DNA of 64,000 nucleotides from Candidatus Omnitrophota bacterium (GTDB lineage Bacteria > Omnitrophota > Gorgyraeia > Zapsychrales > JANLHA01): contig JAKLFA010000002.1 in the NCBI GenBank assembly GCA_022711395.1, forward strand, positions 451,864 through 515,863, written 5' to 3'. Shown one piece after another: positions 1,033 through 29,452 of the stretch. How positions within the stretch are numbered: the first letter of the stretch is position 1; each line of letters starts with the position of its first letter. The notes under the pieces are model-generated. The model had not been told where the DNA came from and ran no database searches. It saw only the letters and a list, made by a program, of their open reading frames with translations. The position numbers were made by a program, and so were the translations under genes.

Positions 1033-1090
1033 TACAGCATAGTTTTTTTATCAATCATATTCATAGCCGTATCATGAAAGGACTTTGTGG

Positions 1091-1999
1091 ATGTCAAAAA
1101 CAGCATTTATTTTTCCGGGGCAGGGCGCCCAATACGTCGGGATGGGCAAAGATCTTTACGAAACGTTCGAAACAGCCAAACAGATCATTGACCAGGCTGA
1201 TCATATTTTGGGAAACGGGCTTAAAGGCGTGATGTTCGAAGGCCCCGAAGAAAAACTCACACAGACCTCATACTGCCAGCCGGCGATCCTCTCGGTGAGC
1301 TATGCGGCAATGACCGTTTATCTGCAGAAATATCCGCAAAGCGCCCCCTCCTTCGTGGCGGGCTTAAGCCTGGGAGAATATTCGGCGCTCGCGGCGAGCG
1401 GCGCGCTTGAGTTCAGCGATACGATCAGGCTCGTCGAGCGGCGCGGCGCCTTTATGAACGAGGCCGCCCAGCTTAAAAAGGGCGCCATGGCCGCTGTGAT
1501 CGGGATGGAACCCCAGGCGATCAAGACAGTCTGCGACGGCTGCGGGGCCGAGGTTGCTAATTTTAACGCGCCGGACCAGACCGTCATCACCGGCGAAGCG
1601 GAGAAGGTCGCGGCCGCTTCCGCGAAGCTCACGGAAGCCGGCGCCAAACGGGTCATCCCCCTTTCGGTCAGCGGAGCGTTCCACTCCTCCCTGATGCAGC
1701 CGGCAGCGGACCGCTTCCAATCGGTCCTGGCAGAAACCCATTTTAAAACCGCGAAGGTCCCTTTGGTCTCTAACGTCGATGCCTCCCCCTGCACGGACCC
1801 GCAACAGATGCGCATCAAGCTGGAAAAACAGATCGTTTCTTCCGTTCAATGGATCAAGACGATCGAATTCATGGCCGGCCAAGGTGTAACAAAATTTATC
1901 GAGATCGGACCGGGAAAAGTCCTCAAAGGCCTCATCCGTAAGATCAACAAAGACCTTGAGGTCATTAATATAGAGAAGGCGGAAGACTTGCTCAAATAA
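1091..1999 (+). CDS. fabD: Malonyl-CoA:ACP transacylase
   Basis: FIFPGQGAQYVGMG and GLSLGEYSALAASG (GHSLGE nucleophile elbow) motifs. AAAGGA SD 9 nt before the ATG at 1091 (the track's TTG at 1085 is probably too far upstream). Confidence 0.9.
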   Translation: MSKTAFIFPGQGAQYVGMGKDLYETFETAKQIIDQADHILGNGLKGVMFEGPEEKLTQTSYCQPAILSVSYAAMTVYLQKYPQSAPSFVAGLSLGEYSALAASGALEFSDTIRLVERRGAFMNEAAQLKKGAMAAVIGMEPQAIKTVCDGCGAEVANFNAPDQTVITGEAEKVAAASAKLTEAGAKRVIPLSVSGAFHSSLMQPAADRFQSVLAETHFKTAKVPLVSNVDASPCTDPQQMRIKLEKQIVSSVQWIKTIEFMAGQGVTKFIEIGPGKVLKGLIRKINKDLEVINIEKAEDLLK

Positions 2000-2017
2000 C
2001 CGACACGAGGATCGACC

Positions 2018-2575
2018 ATGCTGATCGGAAAAAAAGTCCATGAGTTGCGCAAAGCCCGAAAGATGAGCCTGACCGAGCTCGCTGAAAAGACCGGTATCCA
2101 GATCGCGACCTTAAGCCGCATCGAGCACATGAAAATGACCGGCACCCTTCAGTCCCACATGCTGATCGCAAAAGCGTTAGGGATCGAGCTGACCGACCTC
2201 TACCGCGACCTGCCGGGCGCTTCGGCTTTCTCTGAGGCGGAACCCGCTGATGATACTCCCGAGACCGAACGTTTCACCTACAATGACAAGGCCTCCTATG
2301 AGATCCTGGCCAACAATATCCTTTCCAAAAAAATGATGCCCGTGATGCTCAAGATCGAACCCGGCGGGGAGACCCACACGGAACAAAACCAGCCAAGCTC
2401 GGAACGGTTTGTCCTTGTTCTTAACGGAGCCATTGAACTTGTTTTGAAAGATAAAACGATCACATTAAGAAAGAACCACTCGCTGTATTTTGACGCGTCG
2501 TTCCCCCATTCGTTCAAAAACACTGGGGCTGAAACCGCGCGGGTGCTCTCGGTGGCGACACCGGTCACGCTTTAA
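2018..2575 (+). CDS. XRE-family HTH transcriptional regulator with C-terminal cupin domain
   Basis: N-terminal 'LRKARKMSLTELAEKTGIQIATLSRIE' HTH_3 motif and a C-terminal cupin-like beta-rich region. GAGGA SD precedes the ATG. Confidence 0.75.
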   Translation: MLIGKKVHELRKARKMSLTELAEKTGIQIATLSRIEHMKMTGTLQSHMLIAKALGIELTDLYRDLPGASAFSEAEPADDTPETERFTYNDKASYEILANNILSKKMMPVMLKIEPGGETHTEQNQPSSERFVLVLNGAIELVLKDKTITLRKNHSLYFDASFPHSFKNTGAETARVLSVATPVTL

Positions 2576-2590
2576 ATGAAAGGATCTGTC

Positions 2591-2947
2591 ATGACCAAAA
2601 TACTGATCTGTGATGATGAATTGGGAGTGCGCGAATCATTAAAGTTGATCCTGGGGGATTTCTATCCCCTGATCGTGGTGGATAACGGCGAGGCCGCCCT
2701 GGAAGTCCTGAAGAACACGCCTTCGATCAGCCTTGTTTTTATGGATATCAAAATGCCCAAGACCCCGGGGCTTGACGTCCTGGCGAAGATCAAACAACTT
2801 CACCCTCATGTGAAAGTGGTGATCGTTTCCGGCTACAACTCGGTGGAGACCGCCCAGGAGGCCAGCAAGCTGGGCGCTGACGGCTATATCGTTAAGCCCT
2901 TTGACTCAAAAGACGTGCTGGAAAGAGCAAGGAAATATATAAAATAA
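2591..2947 (+). CDS. Single-domain response regulator receiver (CheY-like)
   Basis: 'KILICDDE...LVFMDIKMP...VVIVSGY...GADGYIVKPF' REC signature. AAAGGA SD precedes the ATG at 2591 (the track starts at 2576). Confidence 0.8.
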   Translation: MTKILICDDELGVRESLKLILGDFYPLIVVDNGEAALEVLKNTPSISLVFMDIKMPKTPGLDVLAKIKQLHPHVKVVIVSGYNSVETAQEASKLGADGYIVKPFDSKDVLERARKYIK

Positions 2948-2950
2948 CAT

Positions 2951-4558
2951 ATGGTTATGAACTTAAATCCATTCGCGATTTCAAACCTCATTACAATTGC
3001 CTGTTCGCTCCCCATCGCGGTAATTATTTTTTTATCAAACGAAAAATCGAAACCAGTCTTATACTTCGGCCTCCACTCCTTTTCGATCTTCTGGTGGGGC
3101 TTATTTGCTTTTTTGTCATCGACAGCACCTGATGGATCATCCGCACTAACTCTGCTAAAAGCCGCCTATGCAGGAGTGTTATTTATACCCATCTTTTTTC
3201 TACATTCAATAATCCAAGTATACAACTTTTGGAACAAAATTCTTCTTTGGCTTGGCTATACACAGGCCTCTGTTTTTCTTTTTCTTACAATCAATAATGT
3301 TCTGTTTACACACATTATATCGTCTTTTAATGGCTACTATTACTGTCCAACAAATATTTTTTATCTAATTTCATTTATAATATGGCTCGCTTTTGCAAGC
3401 ATTGCCTTAGTGAAGCTTGTAAGCAATGTTCTCATACCTTACAATCCAAAAGAGTTCGCATACATTCTTGCTGCCATAATAGCCTATTTGAGTGCGGTAA
3501 CAAACTTTCTTCCCACTCTTGGGTTAGAAATTTTTCCTTGGGGGAATTTCTTAATCGGTCCTGGCAATATAATTATGGCCTATTGGATTTTAAAATATCA
3601 ATCTATGAGTTACCGAATTGTGATTCAAAAAAGCCTCATTTATACCTTGTTGATATCAATTACCACCATTGCTTACCTAATCACTGTAATTTTTCTTGAA
3701 AGAATCTCTTCATCAATTCTAAATTATACATCCTTGACTATTACAATTCTTACTGCGTTTATAATCGGTCTTTGTTTTCTCCCGCTAAAAGAAATCCTTC
3801 AAAAATTTATCGATAAATCTATCTTAACCGGAACACCAGCGGAACTGGCCGATCAAAACCGTATCCTAAAGGAAGAAGCAGCCAGAGCGCAGCGGCTCGA
3901 GGCGGTTTCCATCCTTGCCAGCGGGCTGGCCCATGAGATCCGAAATCCTTTGACCGCTATAAAGACGTTCGCCGAATATCTTCCGGAAAAAATGAACGAC
4001 CCGAAATTCCTGAAGCAATTTTCCACGATCGTGGGTCAGGAATCGGAGCGCATCAACACCCTGGTCCAGCAACTTCTGGATTTTGCCAAGCCTTCTGCCC
4101 CGGCCTTTCAAAAGTGCGATATCCGAAAGATCATCAACGAAACACTGGATTTTCTAAGCAGCCGCTTCATTCAATCGCACATCACCCTCAACAATTATGT
4201 TTCAAAAACCACCCCGGTCTGGCTGCGGATCGATCCGAATCAAGTCCGCCAGGCCTTTCTCAACATTTTCATCAATGCGATCGAGGCCATGCCGGACGGC
4301 GGCAGCTTGACGATCCAGGATGAATTCGCTGAAAACTCATCCTACCGGATCGCCATTTCCGATACCGGCCACGGAATAAACGACGACGACCTCAAGCACC
4401 TGTTCAACCCGTTCTACAGCAAAAAAGACGGCGGGACCGGGCTGGGGCTATCGATCACGCATAACATCATTAAAGAACACCAAGGCAGGATCCTTGTGGC
4501 AAGCGTTCCGGGGAAAGGGACAACATTTACGATCGAACTGCCCAAAACCATAGCGTAA
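2951..4558 (+). CDS. Sensor histidine kinase with N-terminal multi-TM (HisKA_7TM-like) domain
   Basis: About 270 aa of TM helices, then HisKA 'LASGLAHEIRNPLTAI' and HATPase_c 'GTGLGLSITHNIIKEHQGRILVASVPGKGTTFTIELP'. Confidence 0.85.
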   Translation: MVMNLNPFAISNLITIACSLPIAVIIFLSNEKSKPVLYFGLHSFSIFWWGLFAFLSSTAPDGSSALTLLKAAYAGVLFIPIFFLHSIIQVYNFWNKILLWLGYTQASVFLFLTINNVLFTHIISSFNGYYYCPTNIFYLISFIIWLAFASIALVKLVSNVLIPYNPKEFAYILAAIIAYLSAVTNFLPTLGLEIFPWGNFLIGPGNIIMAYWILKYQSMSYRIVIQKSLIYTLLISITTIAYLITVIFLERISSSILNYTSLTITILTAFIIGLCFLPLKEILQKFIDKSILTGTPAELADQNRILKEEAARAQRLEAVSILASGLAHEIRNPLTAIKTFAEYLPEKMNDPKFLKQFSTIVGQESERINTLVQQLLDFAKPSAPAFQKCDIRKIINETLDFLSSRFIQSHITLNNYVSKTTPVWLRIDPNQVRQAFLNIFINAIEAMPDGGSLTIQDEFAENSSYRIAISDTGHGINDDDLKHLFNPFYSKKDGGTGLGLSITHNIIKEHQGRILVASVPGKGTTFTIELPKTIA

Positions 4559-4577
4559 AAAATCTTCGCTTTACGCG
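4552..4577. terminator. Weak putative bidirectional hairpin between convergent genes (GCGTAAA...TTTACGC)
   Basis: 7-bp AT-rich inverted repeat spanning the HK stop codon, followed by a T-rich tract. Low stability. Confidence 0.25.
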
Positions 4578-4583
4578 CTTATT

Positions 4584-5831
4584 TTATTCTTCTCTTTTTA
4601 TGTCTTCGCGCTTAACGATCTCAACGATCCCTCCGGCCTTAAAGACGCATTCCAACGCGTCCACCACTTCCGGATGGAACTGCGTTTCCCGGTTACGGAC
4701 GATCTCCTCCATCGCCTGCTGTGGAGTTCGGGACGGCCGGTATGGCCGTTGAGTGACGATCGAATCGAAGGTGTCCGCGACCGCGATGATCGCGGCAATG
4801 ATCGGGATCTCTTCCCCCTTCAACCCGTCGGGGTAGCCCTTTCCGTCATGACGCTCGTGATGATATCGGATCCCGGCCATGCTGCGCTCAAGTTCTGAAA
4901 GCGGCTTTAAGATCGCGACCCCGTCGACCGGATGGCGCTTGACCAGCGCGTATTCTTCAGGCGTCAGGCGCCCGGGCTTGTTCAGGATCGATTCAGGGAC
5001 ACCGATCTTTCCGATATCATGCAGGGTCCCTGCGACATAAAGGTCTTCCATGAACTTTTCATCAAAATGGTATTTCCCGCTTTTGTTCATTTCCTGGGCG
5101 ATCGCCAGGGCATAGCGGGTAACCCCTTCGCTGTGGCCCCTGGTATACTCATCCTTGACTTCGATGGCCGCGCCCAAAGACATGGTCATGCGCAAGAACA
5201 GGTCGTGATTATGCTCGGCCTGGCTCCTGAGCTGGTCAAACAGCTGCGCGTTGCGAAGGGCCATGGCCGTGTCCGAGGCCAGCGCGCCGAAAAAGCTCAG
5301 TTCCTCGGAATCGAATTTTTCACTGCTTTGTTTTTCACCCAATAGAAGCACCGCCAGCAGTTTATCATGATAGATCGCCGGCACACAGGCGACAACGCCT
5401 AAAAGGTCCATCTGGTCGCTGACCTGATGCAGGATCTCTCGCACCTGAGGATCGCATCCATGGCCGTTCAAGAGCCCTTCCTGCCAGATCATTTTGTTCA
5501 TATCATGCCAGAGGATCGCGTGCTTGCTTTGAAAGAGCGGGCGGAACTTCACGTCGCTGAATACTTTTATGATCGGGCTTGAATGGTTAAAGCGCGCGAA
5601 CCCCTGCGGAATGCGATGCCCGGTCTGGCCTTTTGAGATCGCCAAAAGATACTCATTCTTTTCCGGCGAATAAATGATCATGCCGGCGTGCCTGAGCTTA
5701 AGCCGATAGACGATCATGCGGATGATCATCTTGATCAGAAGCTGCGGGTCATGGACCAGGATCATCCCGCGGCTGGCAGCCTCGAGCGCTTCTTTATAGT
5801 CCAGTTTCTTTGAAAAATTCGGTGTTTTCAA
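4584..5831 (-). CDS. HD-GYP c-di-GMP phosphodiesterase with N-terminal GAF-like domain
   Basis: 'HDIGKIGVPESILNKPGRLTPEEYALVKRHP' and 'HHERHDGKGYPDGL' HD-GYP signature. Confidence 0.85.
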   Translation of the reverse strand: MKTPNFSKKLDYKEALEAASRGMILVHDPQLLIKMIIRMIVYRLKLRHAGMIIYSPEKNEYLLAISKGQTGHRIPQGFARFNHSSPIIKVFSDVKFRPLFQSKHAILWHDMNKMIWQEGLLNGHGCDPQVREILHQVSDQMDLLGVVACVPAIYHDKLLAVLLLGEKQSSEKFDSEELSFFGALASDTAMALRNAQLFDQLRSQAEHNHDLFLRMTMSLGAAIEVKDEYTRGHSEGVTRYALAIAQEMNKSGKYHFDEKFMEDLYVAGTLHDIGKIGVPESILNKPGRLTPEEYALVKRHPVDGVAILKPLSELERSMAGIRYHHERHDGKGYPDGLKGEEIPIIAAIIAVADTFDSIVTQRPYRPSRTPQQAMEEIVRNRETQFHPEVVDALECVFKAGGIVEIVKREDIKREE

Positions 5832-5838
5832 GAGTCCG

Positions 5839-6219
5839 TCAAGCCCCCTGCTTTAGCTCTTTCATCACGATCTTCTGCAGCTCCTCAAGGACGAGCGGCT
5901 TGTGAATAAAACCGATGATCCCCAGGCTCCTGGCCTGGTTGATCGTCTCCTCATCTTCAATGCCGCTGACCATGATGACCTTGGTCGGGTCGCCTTCTCC
6001 CCGCATTTTCTGCAGAAACTCCACCCCGGTCATTTCCTCCATGCGGACATCCAAAAGGATCAGGTCAGGGCGCTCTTCCTTCAGAATGTCCAGCGCCTCG
6101 CTGCCGCCGGACGCCGTGAAGACCTGGATCCCCCTTTTTTTAAAATAATTACGGGCGAACTCCCGGATGTCGATCTCATCATCCACGATCAATAACTTGG
6201 ACATTTTCATCCTTTCCAT
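5839..6219 (-). CDS. Single-domain response regulator receiver
   Basis: 'LLIVDDEIDIRE...LILLDVRMEEMTGVEF...VIMVSG...FIHKP' REC motifs. Sits immediately downstream of the HK, with its start codon abutting the HK stop. Confidence 0.8.
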   Translation of the reverse strand: MERMKMSKLLIVDDEIDIREFARNYFKKRGIQVFTASGGSEALDILKEERPDLILLDVRMEEMTGVEFLQKMRGEGDPTKVIMVSGIEDEETINQARSLGIIGFIHKPLVLEELQKIVMKELKQGA

Positions 6220-8439
6220 TTACGCTTGACGCTCTACGCTTTGTATCATATCCTGGTCCAGACCTTCCACCGTCGGAAGAGTAATATAAACACGCGTCCC
6301 TTTGCCGTATTCCGATTTATAAAAAACCTTTCCCTTATGGTTCTCTTCGATCAATTTCTGGATCACATAAAGGCCAAGCCCGGTCCCTTTTTTACTGGAA
6401 AGCTTGGTCGTAAAAAACGGCGTGAAGATCTTTTCCTGGTCTTCAGCCCTGATCCCGATCCCGTTATCTTCCAGCACAATGCGCATGCTGCCCATGCGCG
6501 ACCGTTCAGCCTTGATGGTGATCCGGGGCTCATACCCCTCCTCCTTGAGGTCGCTTTTACGCTGCATCATGGCGTCATAAGCGTTATCGATCATATTAAA
6601 GAACACTTCCTGAAGCTGGGTGAAATTACCGTGGATCTTAGGAAGCCCCGGCTCAAAATCCCTGACGATCGACATTTCGCCGGTCTTGATCTTGAACTGA
6701 GCCATCGTGACCGCTTCATCAATGAGCTCATCGAGCTCAACCTCCCCGAACTGTTCATCGCTCTTGCGGCTGTATTTCAACAGTCCGCGCACGACCTCCC
6801 CGCCCTGGGAAACATTCTCCTGGATGCGGGTCAGGGCGTGCTCAATATCGACCATCATCTCCTTGACCTCATCGGTCATCTTCAGTTTCTTGTTCAGCTG
6901 GATCGTATCCAGAGCGTCTCCGGCGATAAATCCCAACGCGTGCAGTCGGTTATTGATCTGGTGCGACAGGCCATCAGCCATAATACCGATCGTGGCCATC
7001 TTCTCCGCCCTGAAAAGCTGTTCATGGGTCGCCCGCATGTCCTTATAGAACTGCGCGTTCTCGATCGCCAGCCCCGCCTGGTTTGACAGGATCATAAAAA
7101 CCGCCAGATCATCCTGGCTGTAAAGCTCTCCGCTGACCTTCTTGCCCATGACCATCACCGCGATCAGTTTTTCGTCAATAAAACACGGCACGATCAACTC
7201 CGCGTGAAGCGCGGACATCTGTTCTTCCAACTCCTGCAGCTTAAGATCTTTGAAATCCTGCGCCCGCTGCTGCACCTCTGAAAATACGATCGGAGCGCGG
7301 ATCTTTTTAAGCGCCTTAAGGACGCGAGAGTCGGACGCAATAGTTTGAGGGACATCGGTCCTTTCGTTGCGGAACCGGGACGCCTCTAATTTATACTCTT
7401 TTGATTTTCGGTCGCTTAAATAAATAAAGCTGTGCTCAATGCGCACTGAACGGGTCACCACCCGCACGATCATATCCAGCAGTTTATCCATGTCCTTGAT
7501 CCGGCCCATGCCGGTCGAGGCCTGACGCAGTGTGCTCTGATACCGCCTCTGATCCTGAAACAGCTTCTCTTCCGCCCGGCGCTGGATCGCCAAATAAATA
7601 AACGGCCCTGCCGTTGCCATGACTGTCAAAAGGACCATCGGGGAAAGCCACCACAGTTCACCAAAATGCATCCTCAACCATTCCTGACAGCCGATTGCAA
7701 AAGCGTAGGGGATTCCTAAGATTAGGGAATAAACTGCAACAAAAATTGATGTCCTCGTTATAACCAACGAAACATTCATCAGGCGATATTTAATGACTGA
7801 ATAAAAAGTCATCCCTGTAAATGCAATCATAAATAGAAAACCCATCGGATATAAATCAAATCCATAATTTGGCACAAAATCAACTGCCGCAAATGACCCC
7901 ACGATCGTCCCCCAAAAAATATATCTCGATCGAATAATATGCATATAATGCTTTGTCGAAAAAAAAGATGCCCTAAGAAGAGCAACCGAAATAAGCGTAA
8001 ATAAAAGTGAAAAATAGGATAAAAAGGATATGTGAGGTATTAAATTAACTCTAGGATAATCCCCCCATACGAAAGAATTTAATCCTTTGATTAAAAAGTC
8101 TTGTTTATAGAAATTAAAAAAAACGAAGAAACATGGAAATGGAAGGACCCAATAAAAAAGTCTAGATAAAAACTTGTCTTCCAAAAATTCGCCCGTATAT
8201 AACAACCAAATAATTGGAATAAATGCAATTCCAATATAGCCAACTTTAAACATAAATATCTTAAATATTTCTCCTTCCACAAGAAAAGCAACTGAATAGC
8301 TAAAAAGCCAAACAAATATACAAAAACAAAATAAAAAAAAGATGCGATTCAAACTAACTCGTCTATTTCGAATAAAAATAGTTAAGCCAAAAACAAAAAC
8401 AACAAGTGAGGAAAAAAATAAGGAAAAAGCATGCATCAT
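6220..8439 (-). CDS. Sensor histidine kinase: N-terminal 7TM domain, GAF, HisKA, HATPase_c
   Basis: AT-rich N-terminal multi-TM region paralogous to that of 2951..4558. HisKA 'GLSHQINNRLHAL'. HATPase 'GTGLGLYVIQKLIEENHKGKVFYKSEYGKGTRVYITLP'. Confidence 0.85.
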   Translation of the reverse strand: MMHAFSLFFSSLVVFVFGLTIFIRNRRVSLNRIFFLFCFCIFVWLFSYSVAFLVEGEIFKIFMFKVGYIGIAFIPIIWLLYTGEFLEDKFLSRLFYWVLPFPCFFVFFNFYKQDFLIKGLNSFVWGDYPRVNLIPHISFLSYFSLLFTLISVALLRASFFSTKHYMHIIRSRYIFWGTIVGSFAAVDFVPNYGFDLYPMGFLFMIAFTGMTFYSVIKYRLMNVSLVITRTSIFVAVYSLILGIPYAFAIGCQEWLRMHFGELWWLSPMVLLTVMATAGPFIYLAIQRRAEEKLFQDQRRYQSTLRQASTGMGRIKDMDKLLDMIVRVVTRSVRIEHSFIYLSDRKSKEYKLEASRFRNERTDVPQTIASDSRVLKALKKIRAPIVFSEVQQRAQDFKDLKLQELEEQMSALHAELIVPCFIDEKLIAVMVMGKKVSGELYSQDDLAVFMILSNQAGLAIENAQFYKDMRATHEQLFRAEKMATIGIMADGLSHQINNRLHALGFIAGDALDTIQLNKKLKMTDEVKEMMVDIEHALTRIQENVSQGGEVVRGLLKYSRKSDEQFGEVELDELIDEAVTMAQFKIKTGEMSIVRDFEPGLPKIHGNFTQLQEVFFNMIDNAYDAMMQRKSDLKEEGYEPRITIKAERSRMGSMRIVLEDNGIGIRAEDQEKIFTPFFTTKLSSKKGTGLGLYVIQKLIEENHKGKVFYKSEYGKGTRVYITLPTVEGLDQDMIQSVERQA

Positions 8440-8452
8440 ATAATGAACTTCC

Positions 8453-9511
8453 TTATAGATATTTAACTGCAGGAAATATACGATATTTAAGAATCAAATC
8501 AGCCAAACCTTCTAAATTTTCAGAACTAATTTCACCTCTTCCTAATGAAACCAAATCAAAACGCTTTGAAAAAGCCAATATAATAGCTTCTGTCAAACAA
8601 CCATAAATTGCATTTTGCGGAAAAAAGGATTTCCATTTGCTGTCAAAAATTTTTTTATAAAATGGCAACTCAGAGGTTCCTCCAAAGAATAATGTCTTCT
8701 TGGCAGGAAAACTGGTCAATCCACTCTTCTCAAACGAAACATTTGGGGGCATGCCAATATCACAAATTATTGATCCCTCTTTAAAGTCTGAATATCCCAA
8801 CAATGCATCAACCGAGCTCGCAGCCGCAATTATTAAATCTGCATCCGAAACCGCTTCCCTTGCATCAGTAAAACAAACAAACTGATCAAACCCTTCCGCC
8901 TTTAGTTTTTTACAAATTTCTGAATCATCAGAGATTGTCCTTGAGCAAAGTCTTAAAAACTTTGCCTTCTTAGAATAAATTCTTGCACAAATAGACCCGA
9001 TGTCTCCGGTGGCCCCAATTATGGCAACCGAAAGCTCTCGCACTTTTTTACCATGGCGCCCCGCTTCTTTCTCTAATGCCATTGATGCCAATACCGCAGT
9101 CGTCGCATTCCCTGAAGTTATTGGAATAGATGTCATTTTTGAAACATCCCTCCCACCGTTGGTAACAATTGATGTAAATCCCGCCAACGTTATTATGTTG
9201 ACATTCTCCTGTTCAAAAATTTTAAAACAATCTATTATTTTTTTAATCGTATTTTCTTTTTCAATTAACATTTGTCGAGGAAAAATAGGGAGCAATACCC
9301 CAAGAATTTCGATCTCATAATTATTATGGATCAAATTACAAACATGCATTATCTTGTGAGGAGGGATTCTAACAATGTTGTGCGTTATAAAAGAATCATC
9401 CAGAAATTTAAGAATCCAATTCCCAAAAAAAGTGTATATTTTGGGGAATAAATCCCGAAAACTTTCAGTGTTTAGAGGGTGAATTATAATCCCGATTTTT
9501 ACTCTTTCCAT
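8453..9511 (-). CDS. Acyl-ACP reductase (AAR)-family NAD(P)-dependent reductase homologue
   Basis: By-eye collinear alignment with cyanobacterial AAR: GIIIHPLNTE~GLIGHLTSLE, LAGFTSIV~LGGFTSII, TSGNATTAVL~TTGNTHTAYV, IIGATGDIGS~VVGATGDIGS, YGCLTEAII~FACFAEAML (catalytic Cys retained). GC about 38% versus about 60% in neighbours. Confidence 0.6.
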   Translation of the reverse strand: MERVKIGIIIHPLNTESFRDLFPKIYTFFGNWILKFLDDSFITHNIVRIPPHKIMHVCNLIHNNYEIEILGVLLPIFPRQMLIEKENTIKKIIDCFKIFEQENVNIITLAGFTSIVTNGGRDVSKMTSIPITSGNATTAVLASMALEKEAGRHGKKVRELSVAIIGATGDIGSICARIYSKKAKFLRLCSRTISDDSEICKKLKAEGFDQFVCFTDAREAVSDADLIIAAASSVDALLGYSDFKEGSIICDIGMPPNVSFEKSGLTSFPAKKTLFFGGTSELPFYKKIFDSKWKSFFPQNAIYGCLTEAIILAFSKRFDLVSLGRGEISSENLEGLADLILKYRIFPAVKYL

Positions 9512-10728
9512 TTTTTTAACACCAAAGAGAAATTGTTCCCCCCAAACGCAAGGGAATTATTCAATACAACTCTAACCCTATGTTTCCTAAACGTATTCGG
9601 CACACAATCAATATCACACTCCGGGTCCGGGGTCTCATAATTGATCGTTGGCGGGATCTTTTGATCCTTGATCGCCAAGCAGCAGGCTATGGATTCTAAT
9701 GCCGATGCCGCGCCCATCGTATGCCCCAGCATGGATTTGATCGAACTGACCGGGATGTTTTTCAACCGCTCTCCAAAGACAGCTTTAAAGACTTCGCATT
9801 CTGTCTTGTCATTTTCAGGCGTTCCTGTCCCGTGGGCATTAATATAATCGACATCCTCCGGACTCAAACCCGCATCGTTTAAGGCCTTTCTGATAGCTTT
9901 GATCCCACCCTTTGCTTGAGGCTGAGTCAAGTGAAAAGCATCCGATGCCGCTCCACATCCCAAAATTTCCGCATAGATCAGCGCCCCACGCTTACGGGCA
10001 TGTTCAAGCTCTTCCAAAACAAGAATTCCCGCTCCTTCTCCTGGGATCATGCCTTGACGGTTCTTGTCAAAAGGCCTGCACTTTTGCGAATCGATAGCAA
10101 CCAAACGATGAAAACCTGTAAAAGCAATACGAGATAAAGGGTCAACCCCCCCCGCAAACATGCAATTAGTAAAACCCGTTCGTATCATATCTGTCGCTCT
10201 ACCGACAGCAAAATTCCCCGCAGCACAAGCATTCGCGAAAAGATGGCTATTATTTTTAATATCAAAGACATGTGCAAAATTTGAACTTATTGAATTTGCA
10301 GGATAAGTTAGTGGTAAAATTTTTTCCAATGTATCACATCCTATAGTCGTATCAATTTCTACGCATTTTTCAATAACCTGCCCTTCCCCCATGGTAGTTC
10401 CCACGCAAAGACCCGCATTAGTTTCTTTTAAATCAGCCTTAGCAAGCATCGAATCTTTTAAAGCCAACCCCCCCGCAACAATCAACATTTGAGAGGCTCG
10501 TCCAAAATGCTTGAAATTATTTTTTGGGCAAAATATTTTAAAATCAAAATCTCTAACTTGGCCAACCAATTTCCTATCATATTTTGAAGAATCCACATAA
10601 TCAACTTCCGATATCCCGCTCTTCCCTGCCAGCAAATTTTTCCAAAATTCCTGCCAGCCGATGCCGATCGAGGACACAACCCCCAGGCCGGTGACCACCA
10701 CTCTGCGTTTTACATTGTTATTTCGCAT
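9499..10728 (-). CDS. Beta-ketoacyl-ACP synthase I/II-like (FabF/FabB family)
   Basis: VVVTGLGVVS, active-site 'ANACAAGN' Cys, 'HGTGT' and 'GHTMGAAS' His residues, 'AFGGNNFS'. Start is more likely MRNNNVKRRVVV (10728) than the track's 10791, which would read through the GTGTC repeat. Confidence 0.8.
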   Translation of the reverse strand: MRNNNVKRRVVVTGLGVVSSIGIGWQEFWKNLLAGKSGISEVDYVDSSKYDRKLVGQVRDFDFKIFCPKNNFKHFGRASQMLIVAGGLALKDSMLAKADLKETNAGLCVGTTMGEGQVIEKCVEIDTTIGCDTLEKILPLTYPANSISSNFAHVFDIKNNSHLFANACAAGNFAVGRATDMIRTGFTNCMFAGGVDPLSRIAFTGFHRLVAIDSQKCRPFDKNRQGMIPGEGAGILVLEELEHARKRGALIYAEILGCGAASDAFHLTQPQAKGGIKAIRKALNDAGLSPEDVDYINAHGTGTPENDKTECEVFKAVFGERLKNIPVSSIKSMLGHTMGAASALESIACCLAIKDQKIPPTINYETPDPECDIDCVPNTFRKHRVRVVLNNSLAFGGNNFSLVLKKWKE

Positions 10729-10783
10729 TTCCAATCTCTTGTTTCGTATTATACCTTTTACTCCGTGTGTCCTGTGTCCTGTG

Positions 10784-11239
10784 TCATGCATCTTGCCTTA
10801 AAAACGAATAAAACACCTGCGCCTGCCCCAATTTCTCATTTTGCCCGCGCGTCATCTCGATATCCGCATACCCGCCGCTCGCCATCACCCGCCCCTGTAA
10901 AACTTCCATCCTCAGCACATCCCCCACTTCCGCAGGAAAGTTGATATCACATTTGATCTTGCCCAGCACGATCGTGCGCCGCTCCGGATCACCCCGTTCG
11001 ATCAAAGTCCGATACACAAAAAAAGACGCCGCCTGGGCCGCGGCCTCGATCATCAGCGTCGGCGGAAAAATGACCGAACCATCCGGCTGGCGCACAAGAT
11101 AGGGATCATTCGTCGTCACGTTTCTGACAGCGGTCAAACCTTTCCCAGGAACAAAATCCACAATAGAATCAATGAACAGAAAAGGAGGCTTTTGCGGCAG
11201 AACTGCGCGGATATCATCCTGGTCAAACACCGTGTTCAT
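10784..11239 (-). CDS. FabZ-like hotdog-fold protein with catalytic His replaced by Gln
   Basis: Gap-free alignment to E. coli FabZ: LPHRFPFLLVD...[26 protein letters not shown] versus LPQKPPFLFID...NDPYLVRQPDGSVIFPPTLMIEAAAQ. Both His positions (PHR and GHF) are Gln; the Glu is conserved. AAGGAGAG SD before the ATG at 11239. Confidence 0.7.
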   Translation of the reverse strand: MNTVFDQDDIRAVLPQKPPFLFIDSIVDFVPGKGLTAVRNVTTNDPYLVRQPDGSVIFPPTLMIEAAAQAASFFVYRTLIERGDPERRTIVLGKIKCDINFPAEVGDVLRMEVLQGRVMASGGYADIEMTRGQNEKLGQAQVFYSFLRQDA

Positions 11240-11367
11240 CAAACCGCTCTCCTTTGAGCAGTGTTCCCAAGACATATAAGTTATTTAAATAGAAATAGAT
11301 ATAGATATACTAGACGAACTTATTATAGAAGTGATTTTTATGACGGTCAAACAGAAAGAAGAAAAAA

Positions 11368-12342
11368 CTACCACTTGATCAGATTGGCGGCCGTGACAAG
11401 CCCCGAGCCGAAGGTGACCATAACGACCACGCTTCCGGGCTTGATCATCCCCTCTTCCACCGCTTCATAAAGAGCGATCGCCACCGCGGCCGCTGAGGTA
11501 TTACCATATTTCTGGATGTTGATGAAAAACTTATCTTTTGAAACGCCGGCCCGCTTCGCCACCGCGGAAATGATCCGGTCATTGGCCTGATGCGGAACAA
11601 CACAGTCCACATCTTCCAGTTTAAGGCCGGCTTTTTCAACGACCAGATCCACCGCGTCCGCCATCGAAGTGACCGCGACCTTAAACAGCTCCTGCCCCTG
11701 CATCACAATGGCTGGCTTCTGGATCTTCGTGTTGAACTCCAACTGGGCGGGCTCTTCGGTCTTGACATACAGAAGCTCATGGAACTCCCCGGCTGAATGA
11801 AGATATTCCGAAAGGATCCCCCTGCCCTCTTCAACCGGAGCAAGGATGCAGGCCCCGGCGCCGTCCCCAAAAAGCACGCAGGTGGCGCGGTCGCTCCAAT
11901 CAAGCAGGTTGGTGGCCTTCTCAGCGGCGATGACCAGGGCGGTCTTGAACATCCCCGATGTCAAATATTGTTTAGCCGTCGTGATCGCGCATAAAAACCC
12001 CGAACAGGCTGCGCTGACATCGAACGCGGCCGCGTTCTTCGCGCCGATGGCGCTCTGGACTTTGCAGGCAACAGCGGGAAAATTGGAATCCGTGCTGGCG
12101 GTCGCCACAATGATCAGCTCGATCCCCTCAGCAGGAACCGGCGAACCGTCCAAGGCGCTTTTCGCGGCCTCAATGGCCATATCCGTTGTGGTTTCATCCC
12201 GACGGGCCAGGCGGCGCTCCTTGATCCCGGTCCGTGTCGTGATCCACTCATCGGATGTTTCAACGACCTTTTCCAGGTCATGGTTGGTCACGATCCGTTC
12301 AGGCACGTATTTTCCGACAGCAACGATCCCTATATTTTTCAT
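11368..12342 (-). CDS. fabH: Beta-ketoacyl-ACP synthase III
   Basis: N-terminal 'MKNIGIVAVGKYVPERIVTNHDLEKVVETSDEWITTRTGIKER', then 'AACSGF' Cys and C-terminal 'HQANDRII...GNTSAAAV'. Confidence 0.9.
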   Translation of the reverse strand: MKNIGIVAVGKYVPERIVTNHDLEKVVETSDEWITTRTGIKERRLARRDETTTDMAIEAAKSALDGSPVPAEGIELIIVATASTDSNFPAVACKVQSAIGAKNAAAFDVSAACSGFLCAITTAKQYLTSGMFKTALVIAAEKATNLLDWSDRATCVLFGDGAGACILAPVEEGRGILSEYLHSAGEFHELLYVKTEEPAQLEFNTKIQKPAIVMQGQELFKVAVTSMADAVDLVVEKAGLKLEDVDCVVPHQANDRIISAVAKRAGVSKDKFFINIQKYGNTSAAAVAIALYEAVEEGMIKPGSVVVMVTFGSGLVTAANLIKW

Positions 12343-13343
12343 GCAAAACGTCCGATCTCTTTGCGCATATGTTCAATGACGTTATGTTCAACCTCGCGGC
12401 GTGCGGCGCGGATGGCGTTCTTGATCGCCTTGGCATCCGACCGCCCGTGGCTGATCATGACGATCCCGTCCACGCCCAAAAGCGGCGCCCCGCCGTATTC
12501 CGAATAATCCGCGTAACGCCTGATCTGCTTCAGGCGGGATTTCATCAGCCAGGCGCCGAGCATCGCCACCGGGCTTTTTTTGAGCTCCCGTTTTAAAAGC
12601 GCGATCGCTGATTCCGCCAGGCTTTCTGAAACCTTCAAGACCACATTTCCCACGAACCCGTCGCAGACGATGCAATCGCAATCCCCGCGGTAGATCCCGC
12701 TCCCCTCGACATTGCCGACAAAATTCTGCGGCAAACGCTCCGATAAAATCCGGTGGATCTCCTTAACAAAATCCGTCCCCTTCGTCTCTTCCTCGCCTAC
12801 ATTGAGCAAACCGACGCTGGGGTTCTCGATCCCCAACATGTCCCTGGCGTAAACATGCGCCAGCAGTGCCGACTGGACCAGATGCTGCGGTTTGGGGTCC
12901 GTATTGGCCCCCACGTCCAGCACAAGAGCGAAGCCTTTCAGCGTCGGCAAGACCGCACCGATCGCCGGACGTTCGACCCCCTGCATCATTCCCAAAAAGA
13001 CCGTCGCTGCCGCCACCACCGCGCCCGTGTTTCCCGCTGAAATGAAGCCCCTGCAATCCGGATCCGCCTTTAACAGATTGATCCCCACCGAAACGGAAGA
13101 ATTGCGTTTCTTGCGGATCGTTACCGTCGCCGGATCGTCCATCGCCACCACGTCCGGAGCATCCACAATACTGACCAACTCTTTAGGATAATCATACTGG
13201 CTCAGCTCCTGAAGGATCCTTTCCTTGGGCCCGGTCAGGACAACGCTGATCCCAAATTCCTTGACGGCCTGGATCGTCCCGTCCACAACAGCCTGCGGCG
13301 CATGATCCCCACCCATGGCATCAACAACGATTTTCATAAACAC
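12339..13343 (-). CDS. plsX: Phosphate acyltransferase PlsX
   Basis: 'KIVVDAMGGDHAPQAVV' N-terminus and overall PlsX collinearity. Overlaps the fabH start by 4 nt. True start may be MKIVVD at 13337. Confidence 0.9.
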   Translation of the reverse strand: MFMKIVVDAMGGDHAPQAVVDGTIQAVKEFGISVVLTGPKERILQELSQYDYPKELVSIVDAPDVVAMDDPATVTIRKKRNSSVSVGINLLKADPDCRGFISAGNTGAVVAAATVFLGMMQGVERPAIGAVLPTLKGFALVLDVGANTDPKPQHLVQSALLAHVYARDMLGIENPSVGLLNVGEEETKGTDFVKEIHRILSERLPQNFVGNVEGSGIYRGDCDCIVCDGFVGNVVLKVSESLAESAIALLKRELKKSPVAMLGAWLMKSRLKQIRRYADYSEYGGAPLLGVDGIVMISHGRSDAKAIKNAIRAARREVEHNVIEHMRKEIGRFA

Positions 13344-13589: not shown

Positions 13590-13657
13590 GCTTGACTCCG
13601 TTTTTTCGAATGACACAAGACACATGACACACGACGCAAGAGATTCAAAATCCTGTG

Positions 13658-14089
13658 TCATGTGTCCTGTGTCGTGTGTCCTAAGTTACAGTTACACTGT
13701 TTCTGATTTAAATTTTGCCCGCACTGAAGGCACAACCCCTTACAATCATTTCGGCAAAGCTCGAACACTGAATTGGCAATGATCAGCTCTTCCCTTAGAT
13801 CATCTTTAAACTCAACATATTCCGTCGATGAATCGATATCGAATGCCAGCTCGAACCTGTCCGTTTTTTGCCGCTCGAACTCTTCCAGGCAGCGTGAGCA
13901 CGTCAAAGCGTAGGTCGCTTTTACTTCAAAAGCCGCAAGGACCTCATCACCGGCGCGACTGAAGACAGCCTCGACTTTTAAAGGGCCTCTTGCCTTCAGC
14001 GCGTCCTGCGGAAGGTCCAATTCCCCAGCGGTCAGAACTCGGCTGTATTGAAGCCCCCGGTCCGAAATATTGCGTAACGGGATCCTCAT
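13658..14089 (-). CDS. yceD: YceD/DUF177 family protein (23S rRNA accumulation factor)
   Basis: Conserved position upstream of rpmF-plsX-fabH. C-terminal CxxC...CxxC motifs 'CSRCLEEF...CKGLCLQCGQNLN'. The last ~8 codons are encoded by the GTGTC repeat. Confidence 0.7.
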   Translation of the reverse strand: MRIPLRNISDRGLQYSRVLTAGELDLPQDALKARGPLKVEAVFSRAGDEVLAAFEVKATYALTCSRCLEEFERQKTDRFELAFDIDSSTEYVEFKDDLREELIIANSVFELCRNDCKGLCLQCGQNLNQKQCNCNLGHTTQDT

Positions 14090-15173: not shown

Positions 15174-15266
15174 GAAGCCTCTATCCTTTCATATAAGACA
15201 CATGAAAAAGCAGCCCGTCTTTCCTTGTTCCTCCGTGCGCCGTGTGTCATGTGTCCGGTGTCTGTA

Positions 15267-17896: not shown

Positions 17897-18349
17897 ATGA
17901 ATATCCACCCCAAAAACCACTGGATCTGGATCACCTACCTCGTTTTCTACACGTTCTACATGACCCAGATCACACAAGAATTCTTTGTCGCGGATTCCGC
18001 CATGCGCCATTATTATATTTTTTTAGTCCTTTTCGACCGCTATTATCTGATTCCACTGTTCATGAACGCCCTGATGATCATCATGAACATCCTTTCGATC
18101 ATCCCGGTATACTGCTACATCTTTAAACGAAAGTTTTTATCGGAAAACTTTTGGAAGCTTTTTCTTGTGATCCGGATCTGCGCGGAACTGAACGGCCACC
18201 ATTATGAATCAAAGGTCGTGCAAGCCTTTTGGTTCGACGACCCATTTGTCAGCTTTTCGATCGTTTTGATGGGGCTATGCTGGATGGCGCCTTCCTACCT
18301 CGTGCTCTATATTTACGCTTTCAAGCGCTCGAAAGCCCTGGGTCATTAG
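17897..18349 (+). CDS. Hypothetical small membrane protein (about 4 TM)
   Basis: Only convincing plus-strand gene in the 17-64 kb region. Hydrophobic helices. Convergent 4-nt overlap with the RND gene. AT-rich. Confidence 0.45.
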   Translation: MNIHPKNHWIWITYLVFYTFYMTQITQEFFVADSAMRHYYIFLVLFDRYYLIPLFMNALMIIMNILSIIPVYCYIFKRKFLSENFWKLFLVIRICAELNGHHYESKVVQAFWFDDPFVSFSIVLMGLCWMAPSYLVLYIYAFKRSKALGH

Positions 18350-24186: not shown

Positions 24187-24304
24187 TCCCGGCAACGTTC
24201 TACTCTCCCAAAGCCTTGCGACTTAAGTACCATCGACCTCAGCGGGCTTAACTGCCGTGTTCGGAATGGGAACGGGTGTTTCCCCGCTAGCATAATCGCC
24301 GAGA
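24187..24304 (-). rRNA. rrf: 5S ribosomal RNA
   Basis: Reverse complement contains conserved 5S segments 'CCGAACACGGCAGTTAAGCCCGCTG' and '...GGGAGAGTAGAACGTTGCCGGG'. Confidence 0.8.
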
Positions 24305-24374
24305 AAATCTAAATTTCCAGTTATGTGATAATTGATGTATGACCCGTAAGCATACTAGACATGATGTATTTATG

Positions 24375-27335
<2,961 letters not shown>

Positions 27336-27483
27336 TACTATGACTAGTAAACCTACGAAAATTGCATACACCAATTATCACATAACTGTCAAAGAACGAT
27401 TTAACGCCAAAATGGCGCAACAGGAACAGAATTCCCGTTTAAATCTATCTTGAATTTTATTGCCAAACCATAACACCTAAATT

Positions 27484-27559
27484 TGGTGGAGCTGAGGAGG
27501 ATCGAACTCCTGACCCTCTGCTTGCAAAGCAGATGCTCTCCCAGCTGAGCTACAGCCCC
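27484..27559 (-). tRNA. tRNA-Ala (anticodon UGC)
   Basis: Reverse complement GGGGCTGTAGCTCAGCTGGGAGAGCATCTGCTTTGCAAGCAGAGGGTCAGGAGTTCGATCCTCCTCAGCTCCACCA. Cloverleaf with encoded CCA. Confidence 0.9.
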
Positions 27560-27604
27560 ACATGAAAGTCACTATACACAACTTTTTGTGCTTCGTGTCT
27601 TAAA

Positions 27605-27681
27605 TGGTGGGCCCGAGAGGATTCGAACCGCTGACCCCCGCGTTATCAGCACGGTGCTCTAACCACCTGAGCTACGGGCCC
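27605..27681 (-). tRNA. tRNA-Ile (anticodon GAU)
   Basis: Reverse complement GGGCCCGTAGCTCAGGTGGTTAGAGCACCGTGCTGATAACGCGGGGGTCAGCGGTTCGAATCCTCTCGGGCCCACCA. Confidence 0.9.
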
Positions 27682-27867
27682 AAAACCCAGCAAATTCGAT
27701 CCTTCGATCTCATTAAATTTAGAAAGCCAAGCTCTTTGAAAGAGCTTTTCCTTTGACCACAAGTTCGTGTGAGAACGAACTCATTGCCGTCTTTCCCTCG
27801 GGCAGGGTTCCTAGCATCATTATGATTGCCTATTCAATGAATAGTTTCTCGAAAACGAGAAAATAGA

Positions 27868-29452
<1,585 letters not shown>

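Follow-up and report, generated by a model that had tools for sequence, protein, structure and literature searches.

Does the AT-rich trough beside the fatty-acid synthesis genes of an uncultivated Omnitrophota bacterium mark the arrival of a foreign gene module, or does it reflect another kind of genome variation? We addressed this question in a 64,000-nucleotide stretch of Candidatus Omnitrophota DNA (assembly GCA_022711395.1, contig JAKLFA010000002.1, positions 451,864 to 515,863), referred to here as the window. On its minus strand the window carries, in order, plsX, fabH, a gene for a FabZ-like protein, a KAS gene, a gene resembling acyl-ACP (acyl carrier protein) reductases (AAR-like), a histidine kinase gene (HK2), a receiver gene (RR2) and a GAF-HD-GYP gene; RR1 and a further kinase gene, HK1, lie on the plus strand. 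A sequence-only reading had proposed that the AAR-like and KAS genes form a horizontally acquired module, inserted between fabH and the signalling genes and edged by GTGTC repeats. Our analysis indicates that the trough is probably a replacement-type variable locus, in which a slot gene and the sensor domain of the following kinase form a swappable cassette, and not an insertion.

The trough itself is real. The mean GC content of the window is 48.8 %, and 1-kb windows fall below 40 % in two regions only, 7300–9800 and approximately 2700–4200. The AAR-like ORF (open reading frame) has a GC content of 0.357 and a GC content at third codon positions (GC3) of 0.303, the lowest among the 53 ORFs of the window. 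Equally AT-rich 1059-bp windows make up just 1.5 % of the total, and all of them fall within the trough of this gene. When each gene was recoded with the codon usage of the remaining window, and z computed on GC3, the amino acids of the AAR-like protein predicted a GC content of 0.464 and a GC3 of 0.579 (z = −10.9). Most of the drop is therefore synonymous, and the suggestion that amino-acid composition is not its cause was borne out. The flanks are less GC-rich than the 60–68 % that had been estimated for fabH and plsX: the two genes have 56.7 and 57.1 % GC, respectively (GC3 0.69–0.70), the FabZ-like gene has 52.6 %, and no 300-nt window exceeds 60 %.

The borders of the trough fall within genes. 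Likelihood change-point segmentation returned the core trough as one segment, 7711–9540, with a GC content of 0.336, comprising the AAR-like gene and the first ~230 codons of HK2, which encode its seven-transmembrane (7TM) sensor domain. GC content reaches its minimum, 26 %, at 8200–8499, where the AAR-like gene ends and HK2 begins. In 50-codon blocks, the step in GC3 is located inside the HK2 gene: residues 1–250 have a GC3 of 0.28 (z = −10.0; blocks 0.20–0.36), and residues 251–739 a GC3 of 0.675 (blocks 0.62–0.78). A second segment, 2881–3840 (GC 0.353), corresponds to the transmembrane domain of HK1, in which residues 1–300 have a GC3 of 0.35 (z = −8.8). The KAS ORF has a GC content of 0.439 and a GC3 of 0.42 (z = −7.3; residues 51–200, z = −7.8), with strong AT-richness limited to residues ~39–163 of the corrected protein (GC3 0.25–0.29). 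Neighbouring parts of the same genes have GC3 z-scores of +2 to +4. The island had been placed at 8453–10791, an extent that takes in the whole of KAS and counts ~700 bp of AT-rich HK2 sequence as native flank. The shift in composition is thus domain-precise, ending within a histidine-kinase gene at the sensor/GAF boundary, and gene-by-gene GC screens would mis-call the island.

Relatives of the locus were fetched by FabH from genomes and by the conserved part of HK2 from metagenomes, and were then annotated; loci are designated here by L numbers. The relatives found by FabH are Candidatus Omnitrophota metagenome-assembled genomes. DNA-level alignment (blastn, word size 9) of the window to L013, its closest relative, covers 11502–10613 (86 % identity), 10239–9524 (78 %) and 7745–5969 (83 %), with nothing alignable in between. 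No alignment was obtained over 9523–7746 against L013 or over 9527–7773 against L003, between flanks that are 73–86 % identical. The junctions with the two relatives agree within ~70 bp: 10613 and 10543 (the 70-bp case), 10239 in both, 9524 and 9527, and 7745 and 7773 for L013 and L003, respectively. In L003 only, a further gap with a junction at 3800 covers the HK1 sensor domain (3800–2951). The AT-rich segments coincide exactly with the segments that are not DNA-alignable to L013 and L003.

Across the clade, the gene run is rsmD-coaD-yceD-rpmF-plsX-fabH-(fabD)-(FabZ-like)-KAS-slot-HK2-RR2-HD-GYP-HK1-RR1, where the slot is the position held by the AAR-like gene in the window, and more than 12 loci share the order fabH to KAS, slot, HK2 core-RR2-HD-GYP. 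A KAS orthologue lies directly upstream of the slot in all 12 fab-linked loci (L003, L004, L005, L012, L013, L015, L017, L018, L022, L024, L038 and L041), so KAS was not inserted, and the proposed insertion of an AAR–KAS pair between fabH and the kinase does not hold. The sequence-only reading also suggested looking for relatives in which fabH is followed directly by the kinase. The slot is almost never empty; other acyl-handling genes occupy it, and their Pfam assignments differ between lineages (Table 1). Only L034 lacks both KAS and a slot gene, and its kinase has no 7TM domain.

The AAR-like and the NAD_binding_4 (FAR-type) slot genes represent two unrelated folds of acyl-thioester reductase at one position, which is non-orthologous displacement. 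Some FAR-type slots also carry an amine-oxidase-like flavoprotein and a nitroreductase. In 16 of 20 loci the GC3 of the slot gene is 0.21–0.36, between flanks of 0.43–0.75, and several relatives' loci have an overall GC content of 35–39 %. Where the HK2 locus is not linked to fab genes, the genes next to the slot still concern lipids, encoding FadL/TodX-type lipid transporters (L036 and L026) or an SRPBCC lipid-binding protein (L032).

Individual relatives showed further peculiarities of slot content. In L019, a single ORF for a 2524-amino-acid polyketide synthase (PKS)-like protein with KS and AT matches (1654–9228) replaces both KAS and the slot gene, directly upstream of HK2. The slot of L028 (734–2104) holds a PilZ-domain methyltransferase gene with a GC content of 0.28, placing a domain that binds cyclic di-GMP (c-di-GMP) beside the HD-GYP signalling unit. 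In L013 (2016–3055) two overlapping ORFs, of 224 and 134 amino acids, stand in place of one slot gene, and both match a single ORF of L025; a frameshift (pseudogene or sequencing error) is the probable cause.

The clearest view of exchange came from a pair of nearly identical backgrounds. L025 and L022 share 95.5 % nucleotide identity over 4.1 kb from HK2 residue ~215–245 onward. Upstream of this point, their 7TM domains are only 27 % identical and their slot genes are unrelated (thioesterase-like and AAR-like, respectively). L025 compares quite differently with L013: the 7TM domains are 62 % identical and the slot ORFs 47 %, and the kinase part reaches only 59 %. Across 190 pairs, identity of the 7TM domain was scarcely correlated with identity of the kinase core (r = 0.17). 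Pairs with the same slot type had 7TM identities 4.3 points higher (permutation p = 0.006), and slot type had no effect on the kinase core (p = 0.52). The pattern among L022, L025 and L013, together with the association with slot type, indicates that slot gene and HisKA_7TM domain are transferred jointly and that the exchange junction falls at the domain boundary.

We propose that the slot gene and the following 7TM domain of HK2 constitute one exchangeable cassette that differs by lineage and would be swapped through recombination in the conserved flanks. One breakpoint lies in the linker between the 7TM and GAF domains of HK2 (residue ~215–245), and the other is within the 3' half of KAS or immediately upstream of it. 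The cassette of the window would then comprise 7746–9523, that is, the AAR-like gene and HK2 residues 1–231. A separate imported patch would have replaced KAS residues ~39–163 in the window lineage, and the sensor domain of HK1 is likewise variable. The slot would encode an enzyme that decides the fate of acyl-ACP supplied by the adjacent FabH, FabZ-like and KAS proteins. In the window this fate would be reduction to an aldehyde or alcohol; the other slot enzymes (FAR, thioesterase-like, acyltransferase, extra KAS and PKS) would remove the acyl chain from ACP or extend it.

Because the cassettes are AT-rich in almost every lineage, low GC content appears to be a property of the circulating cassette pool and not of one recent arrival from outside the clade. 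Decay after arrival is not the source of the AT-richness either, since both alleles in the near-identical L022 and L025 backgrounds are AT-rich. The pool may owe its composition to an origin in AT-rich members of the clade, to having long escaped the force that maintains a high GC3 in recombining core DNA, or to selection.

The KAS gene requires separate consideration. Its start codon is properly placed at ATG 10728 rather than at 10791; the sequence around it is conserved in L013 and L003, and the 21 codons upstream are heptad repeat in the spacer. Compared with L013, the window protein is 97 % identical over its N-terminal part (38 residues), 38 % over the middle and 80 % over the C-terminal part (246 residues). 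The middle parts of L003 and L013 are 64 % identical to each other, and that of the window (GC3 0.25) is closest to those of the more distant L005 (50 %) and L004 (48 %). We read residues ~39–163 as an imported patch specific to the window because they are closest to distant relatives and not to close ones. Replacement of the entire KAS gene was also considered, as the window protein is 64–66 % identical to those of L003, L004 and L005 alike. Given the identity of its N- and C-terminal parts to L013 and their alignment at the DNA level, an internal patch is preferred.

The GTGTC repeats on which the proposed island edges rested are genuine. Heptads occur at 10766–10785, 13612–13680 and 15244–15262 (11 matches against 1.3 expected), and one set does lie at the FabZ-like/KAS junction. 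On the coding strand they read (GACACAN)x3–4, and each set starts at a stop codon or overlaps it, the genes concerned being the FabZ-like gene, yceD and recG. The sets at the yceD/rpmF and recG/rsmD junctions are well within conserved DNA, and none lies on the AAR/HK2 side. Those at yceD/rpmF form an inverted pair, 91 % complementary with a 16-nt loop, from which a hairpin is possible. The orthologous FabZ-like/KAS spacer contains (GTAAAGC)x7 in L013 and a degenerate heptad in L003, and other short tandem repeats occur at gene junctions of L003. As two of the three junctions lie in conserved DNA and unrelated heptads fill the spacer of close relatives, the repeats were ruled out as island borders; the heptads are a feature of gene junctions in this lineage and not scars of an island. 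The AT-rich segment is not flanked by any repeat pair. Profile scans revealed no integrase or transposase at either edge, the neighbouring ORFs all being assigned to fab or signalling families. When tRNA genes were considered as integration sites, the only ones found in the window were tRNA-Ile and tRNA-Ala of the rRNA operon (27.5 kb). This operon is complete (16S, tRNA-Ile, tRNA-Ala, 23S, 5S; 24187–29452, minus strand), which identifies the window as chromosomal core DNA.

These data bear directly on how the trough arose. A single horizontal acquisition of AAR and KAS together would account for the strongly atypical synonymous sites and for a heptad repeat just upstream of the KAS start codon. 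It is highly improbable in view of the constant position of KAS in 12 relatives and the near identity of its terminal parts to the closest one, the slot that is filled in nearly all relatives, a trough that runs on into HK2, a second edge with no repeat, and surroundings with no mobility gene or tRNA; the same heptads, moreover, stand in conserved DNA, and the spacer repeat differs between close relatives. What survives of the horizontal-transfer proposal is that the AT-rich DNA has a history unlike that of its flanks and that the AAR-like gene is not fixed among relatives. Protein composition is also a very unlikely cause. Hydrophobic or Lys/Asn/Ile-rich proteins with AT-rich codons do lower the expected GC content to 0.42–0.43 for the 7TM domains of the kinases and to 0.46 for the AAR-like gene, below the window mean of 0.49, and amino-acid content explains between roughly one fifth and less than one half of the drop, depending on the segment. 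The observed values are nevertheless 0.31–0.36 for GC and 0.28–0.35 for GC3, against ~0.58 expected for the latter, and a hydrophobic ORF at 17897–18349, with a GC content of 0.27 at second codon positions, has a GC3 of 0.67. A chimera of organisms with different GC contents, created in assembly or binning, might be suspected from the metagenomic source and from composition that switches abruptly within genes, but is scarcely credible: reading frames are intact through every junction, the same architecture is present in more than 15 independent contigs, an identical 10.5-kb locus was assembled independently from an ENA sample (L001), and the AAR-like gene was also recovered from JGI samples (L002, P0001).

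A history without any transfer, in which the fastest-evolving parts of native genes were driven AT-rich in place by AT-biased mutation, deserves more attention. It fits the exact match between low GC3 and high divergence, the constant place of the trough across lineages of very different flank GC, and the lack of a donor for the window cassette. We nonetheless regard it as unlikely, since slot genes of unrelated protein folds are not obtainable by divergence, and a sharp junction separates a part in which L022 and L025 are 95.5 % identical from one in which they are unrelated. In addition, the cassette of L025 matches that of a much more distant lineage, and the KAS patch of the window is nearer to distant than to close relatives. 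AT-biased evolution in place may help to keep the cassettes AT-rich. Cassette replacement is the explanation that we favour, and several observations weigh against it. The association between slot type and 7TM variant could arise from physical linkage alone, and the window cassette is without a close donor (best identities 41 % for the AAR-like protein and 34 % for the 7TM domain). Exchange in the window lineage was deduced from mosaic structure and from relatives, and was not caught directly. High divergence and low GC content could partly reflect fast evolution in place; the middle of KAS is the least conserved part of this protein in all pairs, so that its divergence is partly ordinary. Four loci (L004, L012, L015 and L019) have little or no trough, with slot GC3 of 0.41–0.57, and the composition background was drawn from only 64 kb of this genome.

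Table 1. Features of the locus in the window, and genes occupying the slot in the window and its relatives
Feature	Position	Strand	Basis or loci
Core AT-rich cassette (AAR-like gene and HisKA_7TM-coding part of HK2)	7746–9523	−	No DNA alignment to closest relatives; segmentation 7711–9540
AAR-like oxidoreductase, 352 amino acids, acyl-ACP reductase/PigE N-domain superfamily	8453–9511	−	Profile scores, structure–sequence alignments
HK2 residues 1–231, HisKA_7TM sensor domain, hypervariable, AT-rich	7746–8439	−	Pfam PF16927
HK2 conserved part (linker, GAF, HisKA/HATPase core)	6220–7745	−	Pfam GAF_2, HATPase_c; 83 % nucleotide identity to L013, 80 % to L003
RR2, stand-alone receiver protein	5839–6219	−	Pfam Response_reg; 85 % amino acid identity to L003
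GAF/HD-GYP protein, predicted c-di-GMP phosphodiesterase	4584–5831	−	Pfam HD_5, 130 bits; 90 % amino acid identity to L003
HK1 transmembrane sensor domain, second AT-rich hypervariable segment	2951–3800	+	GC3 0.35; not DNA-alignable
KAS II (FabF-type, Cys-His-His), fabF position	9499–10728	−	NF005589, 406.6 bits (cut-off 387); TIGR03150, 408.5 bits (cut-off 493.75)
AT-rich divergent KAS patch, residues ~39–163, window-lineage-specific	10240–10612	−	Not alignable with L013 or L003
(GGACACA)x3 heptad tandem repeat	10766–10785	−	Between FabZ-like stop and KAS start codon
FabZ-like hotdog protein, normal composition	10784–11275	−	FabA Pfam, 35 bits; FabZ NCBIfam, 56 bits (cut-off 113)
Sigma-70-like promoter match, TTGACC-17-TATAAT, 11/12	11322–11350	−	fabH/FabZ-like gap; consensus match only
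fabH and plsX, conserved GC-richer flank	11368–13343	−	NCBIfam fabH and plsX above cut-off; 84 and 90 % amino acid identity to L003
Slot: AAR-like			Window, L004, L017, L022, L023, L032, L036, L041
Slot: NAD_binding_4 'male sterility'/FAR-type reductase			L003, L012, L015, L020, L024, L038
Slot: second, divergent KAS (KAS-like)			L005, L018
Slot: 2524-amino-acid PKS			L019
Slot: hotdog thioesterase-like			L013, L025
Slot: PlsC-type acyltransferase and HAD hydrolase			L026
Slot: PilZ-methyltransferase			L028

The AAR-like protein has a common fold family with cyanobacterial AAR (TIGR04058; PDB 6jzu) and the N-terminal domain of PigE (PDB 4ppm). It scored 34 bits against Pfam Shikimate_DH, 105.6 bits against NCBIfam PigE and 70.5 bits against TIGR04058, the equivalog model of cyanobacterial AAR, for which the cut-off is 449.7. 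In alignments to 6jzu and 4ppm the nucleotide-binding motif GATGDIG is retained, GATGDIGS pairing with GATGDIGS. Cys305 (iYGCLTEA) pairs with the cysteine of mFACFAEA in 6jzu, the acyl-carrying residue of AAR, which is the catalytic Cys294 in Synechococcus elongatus numbering. The nucleotide motif and the cysteine of the acyl intermediate are thus conserved in both proteins. On the basis of the retained NAD(P)H motif and catalytic cysteine, the enzyme is predicted to reduce acyl-ACP, and it probably converts acyl-ACP from FabH and KAS to a fatty aldehyde or alcohol.

The AAR-like protein differs from cyanobacterial AAR in falling far below the equivalog cut-off, in its membership of a divergent group drawn mainly from Omnitrophota, and in its gene context: its immediate neighbours are KAS, which it overlaps by 13 nt, and HK2, separated by a gap of 13 nt, and there is no adjacent aldehyde-deformylating oxygenase at the locus. 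The nearest non-self homologues are 36–41 % identical. A donor search returned at most 39 % identity in the protein collection, and the best match overall was that of L004 (41 %). Our literature search for acyl-ACP reductase in Omnitrophica found no papers. In proteins of ~520 amino acids from Omnitrophota (P0072, P0075, P0079–P0082, P0093–P0096 and P0100), the AAR-like domain is fused to an SRPBCC/polyketide-cyclase lipid-binding domain; in L032 (7731–9246) the two modules are separate, adjacent genes.

Upstream of KAS, the FabZ-like protein is 83 % identical to that of L013 at the amino acid level, and the FabZ-like/KAS pair recurs in L013, L003, L017, L018, L022, L024 and L041. Alignment to PDB 8ayd showed that the catalytic histidine of FabZ (GHFP) corresponds to a glutamine (RQPD), with the glutamate of the IEA motif retained, and the protein may therefore not be a dehydratase. 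The tight gene spacing, the promoter match upstream of the FabZ-like gene and a terminator-like hairpin at 4553–4576, after the HD-GYP gene, would fit a single transcription unit. Among the remaining fab genes, fabD is located past the signalling genes, in the opposite orientation, in both the window (1085–1999, plus strand) and L003, and between fabH and KAS in L004, L005, L012 and L015, which indicates a local rearrangement in the window/L003 sub-lineage. The fab run of this clade showed no fabG, in contrast to that of the distant L011.

The HK2 gene (6220–8439, minus strand) encodes HisKA_7TM, GAF and kinase domains. The protein matches PF16927 over residues 7–223 with 54.1 bits (cut-off 28.6), and HATPase_c was also matched. 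Identity to the L003 protein is 28–38 % over residues 1–200 and 88–100 % over much of the remainder. A donor search for the 7TM domain returned a single match, at 34 % identity. HK1 repeats this pattern, with 22–44 % identity to L003 in the sensor domain and 54–94 % in the kinase core. Its N-terminal domain has no Pfam match and is 24 % identical to the N-terminal part of HK2 (E = 5e-6), a distant relation to the HK2 7TM domain. Two HK1 paralogues lie in tandem in L022 (13322–16550), and L025 has one (4807–6411), the sensor domain of which is not alignable with L022. This difference between backgrounds that are 95.5 % identical indicates that tandem duplication, deletion or domain exchange acts on HK1 too.

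Elsewhere in the window, a low-GC spot at 56–58 kb contains a gene for a membrane protein and small ORFs, one of which encodes a cold-shock-like protein; it appears unremarkable. A 270-bp segment upstream of fabD (841–1110) has a GC content of 0.22 and a 12-nt tandem repeat at 937–966; it is probably a promoter or intergenic region.

The closest known kind of locus is the replacement flexible genomic island. AT-rich composition is familiar in O-antigen clusters. Such clusters and other surface-structure loci are swapped by homologous recombination as replacement islands (Lopez-Perez et al. 2014, PMC4033161). The slot locus resembles these islands in its constant position between conserved flanks, in holding different and partly non-homologous genes of related function, and in exchange between near-identical backgrounds (L022 and L025) with no mobility genes. 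It differs in that the slot genes handle fatty-acyl chains, not sugars, the products being predicted lipid enzymes and a membrane sensor. The cassette is also tiny, at one to three genes, and one of its borders lies within a histidine-kinase gene at a domain boundary.

Two signalling systems offer a further comparison. In agr, the variable block contains the genes that make the signal and the membrane-sensing portion of the histidine kinase that responds to it; the kinase core and the regulator are conserved. The variable agrBDC region of Staphylococcus aureus shows internal linkage disequilibrium and no linkage to agrA (PMC8768832). In the slot locus, as in agrBDC of Staphylococcus, a producer-side gene and the sensor part of a kinase vary together beside a conserved kinase core. 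This likeness is organizational: there is no sequence relationship, and in the slot locus a lipid enzyme takes the place of the peptide precursor or processing protease. In the rpf/DSF system of Xanthomonas and Stenotrophomonas, RpfF acts on acyl-ACP, the multi-pass RpfC senses the product, and the HD-GYP protein RpfG, a c-di-GMP phosphodiesterase, is the output (PMC4504480). Two rpf variants occur in Stenotrophomonas maltophilia; they have different RpfF proteins and different transmembrane input domains of RpfC, a difference attributed to horizontal exchange (PMC4517397). Here the likeness is in architecture only, namely a putative acyl-ACP enzyme, a multi-pass sensor kinase and an HD-GYP protein. 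The sensor of the slot locus is HisKA_7TM and not RpfC-type, and receiver and HD-GYP domains are on separate proteins. Profile scans detected no crotonase-family (RpfF-type) domain among the locus proteins, and no homology to RpfF, RpfC or Agr proteins was found.

A doubtful further reading is that the locus might be a lipid-based signalling system with exchangeable specificity types, following a logic like that of agr pherotypes or rpf variants. The slot enzyme would free the acyl chain from ACP to give a lineage-specific fatty aldehyde, alcohol or acid, and the patch in the KAS pocket may tune chain length. The co-inherited HisKA_7TM domain of HK2 would recognize the product of the slot enzyme, and the kinase core, RR2 and the HD-GYP protein, whose genes are adjacent and tightly spaced, would pass the signal on as an altered c-di-GMP level. 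With enzyme and sensor transferred together, each producer would stay matched to its receptor. The proposal is mildly favoured by the co-exchange of enzyme and sensor and the association of 7TM variant with slot type (p = 0.006), by the conserved HD-GYP output and the PilZ slot protein of one lineage, and by the FadL-type transporter or SRPBCC protein that adjoins the slot where fab genes are unlinked. If it is correct, it would provide the first ligand class for the uncharacterized HisKA_7TM domain and reveal a cell–cell or membrane-state signalling system in uncultivated Omnitrophota.

A low-GC island read as horizontal transfer is routine by itself. The interest of this locus is that an uncultivated Omnitrophota clade keeps a small replacement slot beside its fatty-acid synthesis genes, filled by unrelated acyl-chain enzymes that include two non-homologous acyl-thioester reductases, which suggests diversification of lipid products. 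The enzyme gene is exchanged together with the sensor domain, in the membrane, of the neighbouring kinase, and this offers a testable idea of what HisKA_7TM domains sense.

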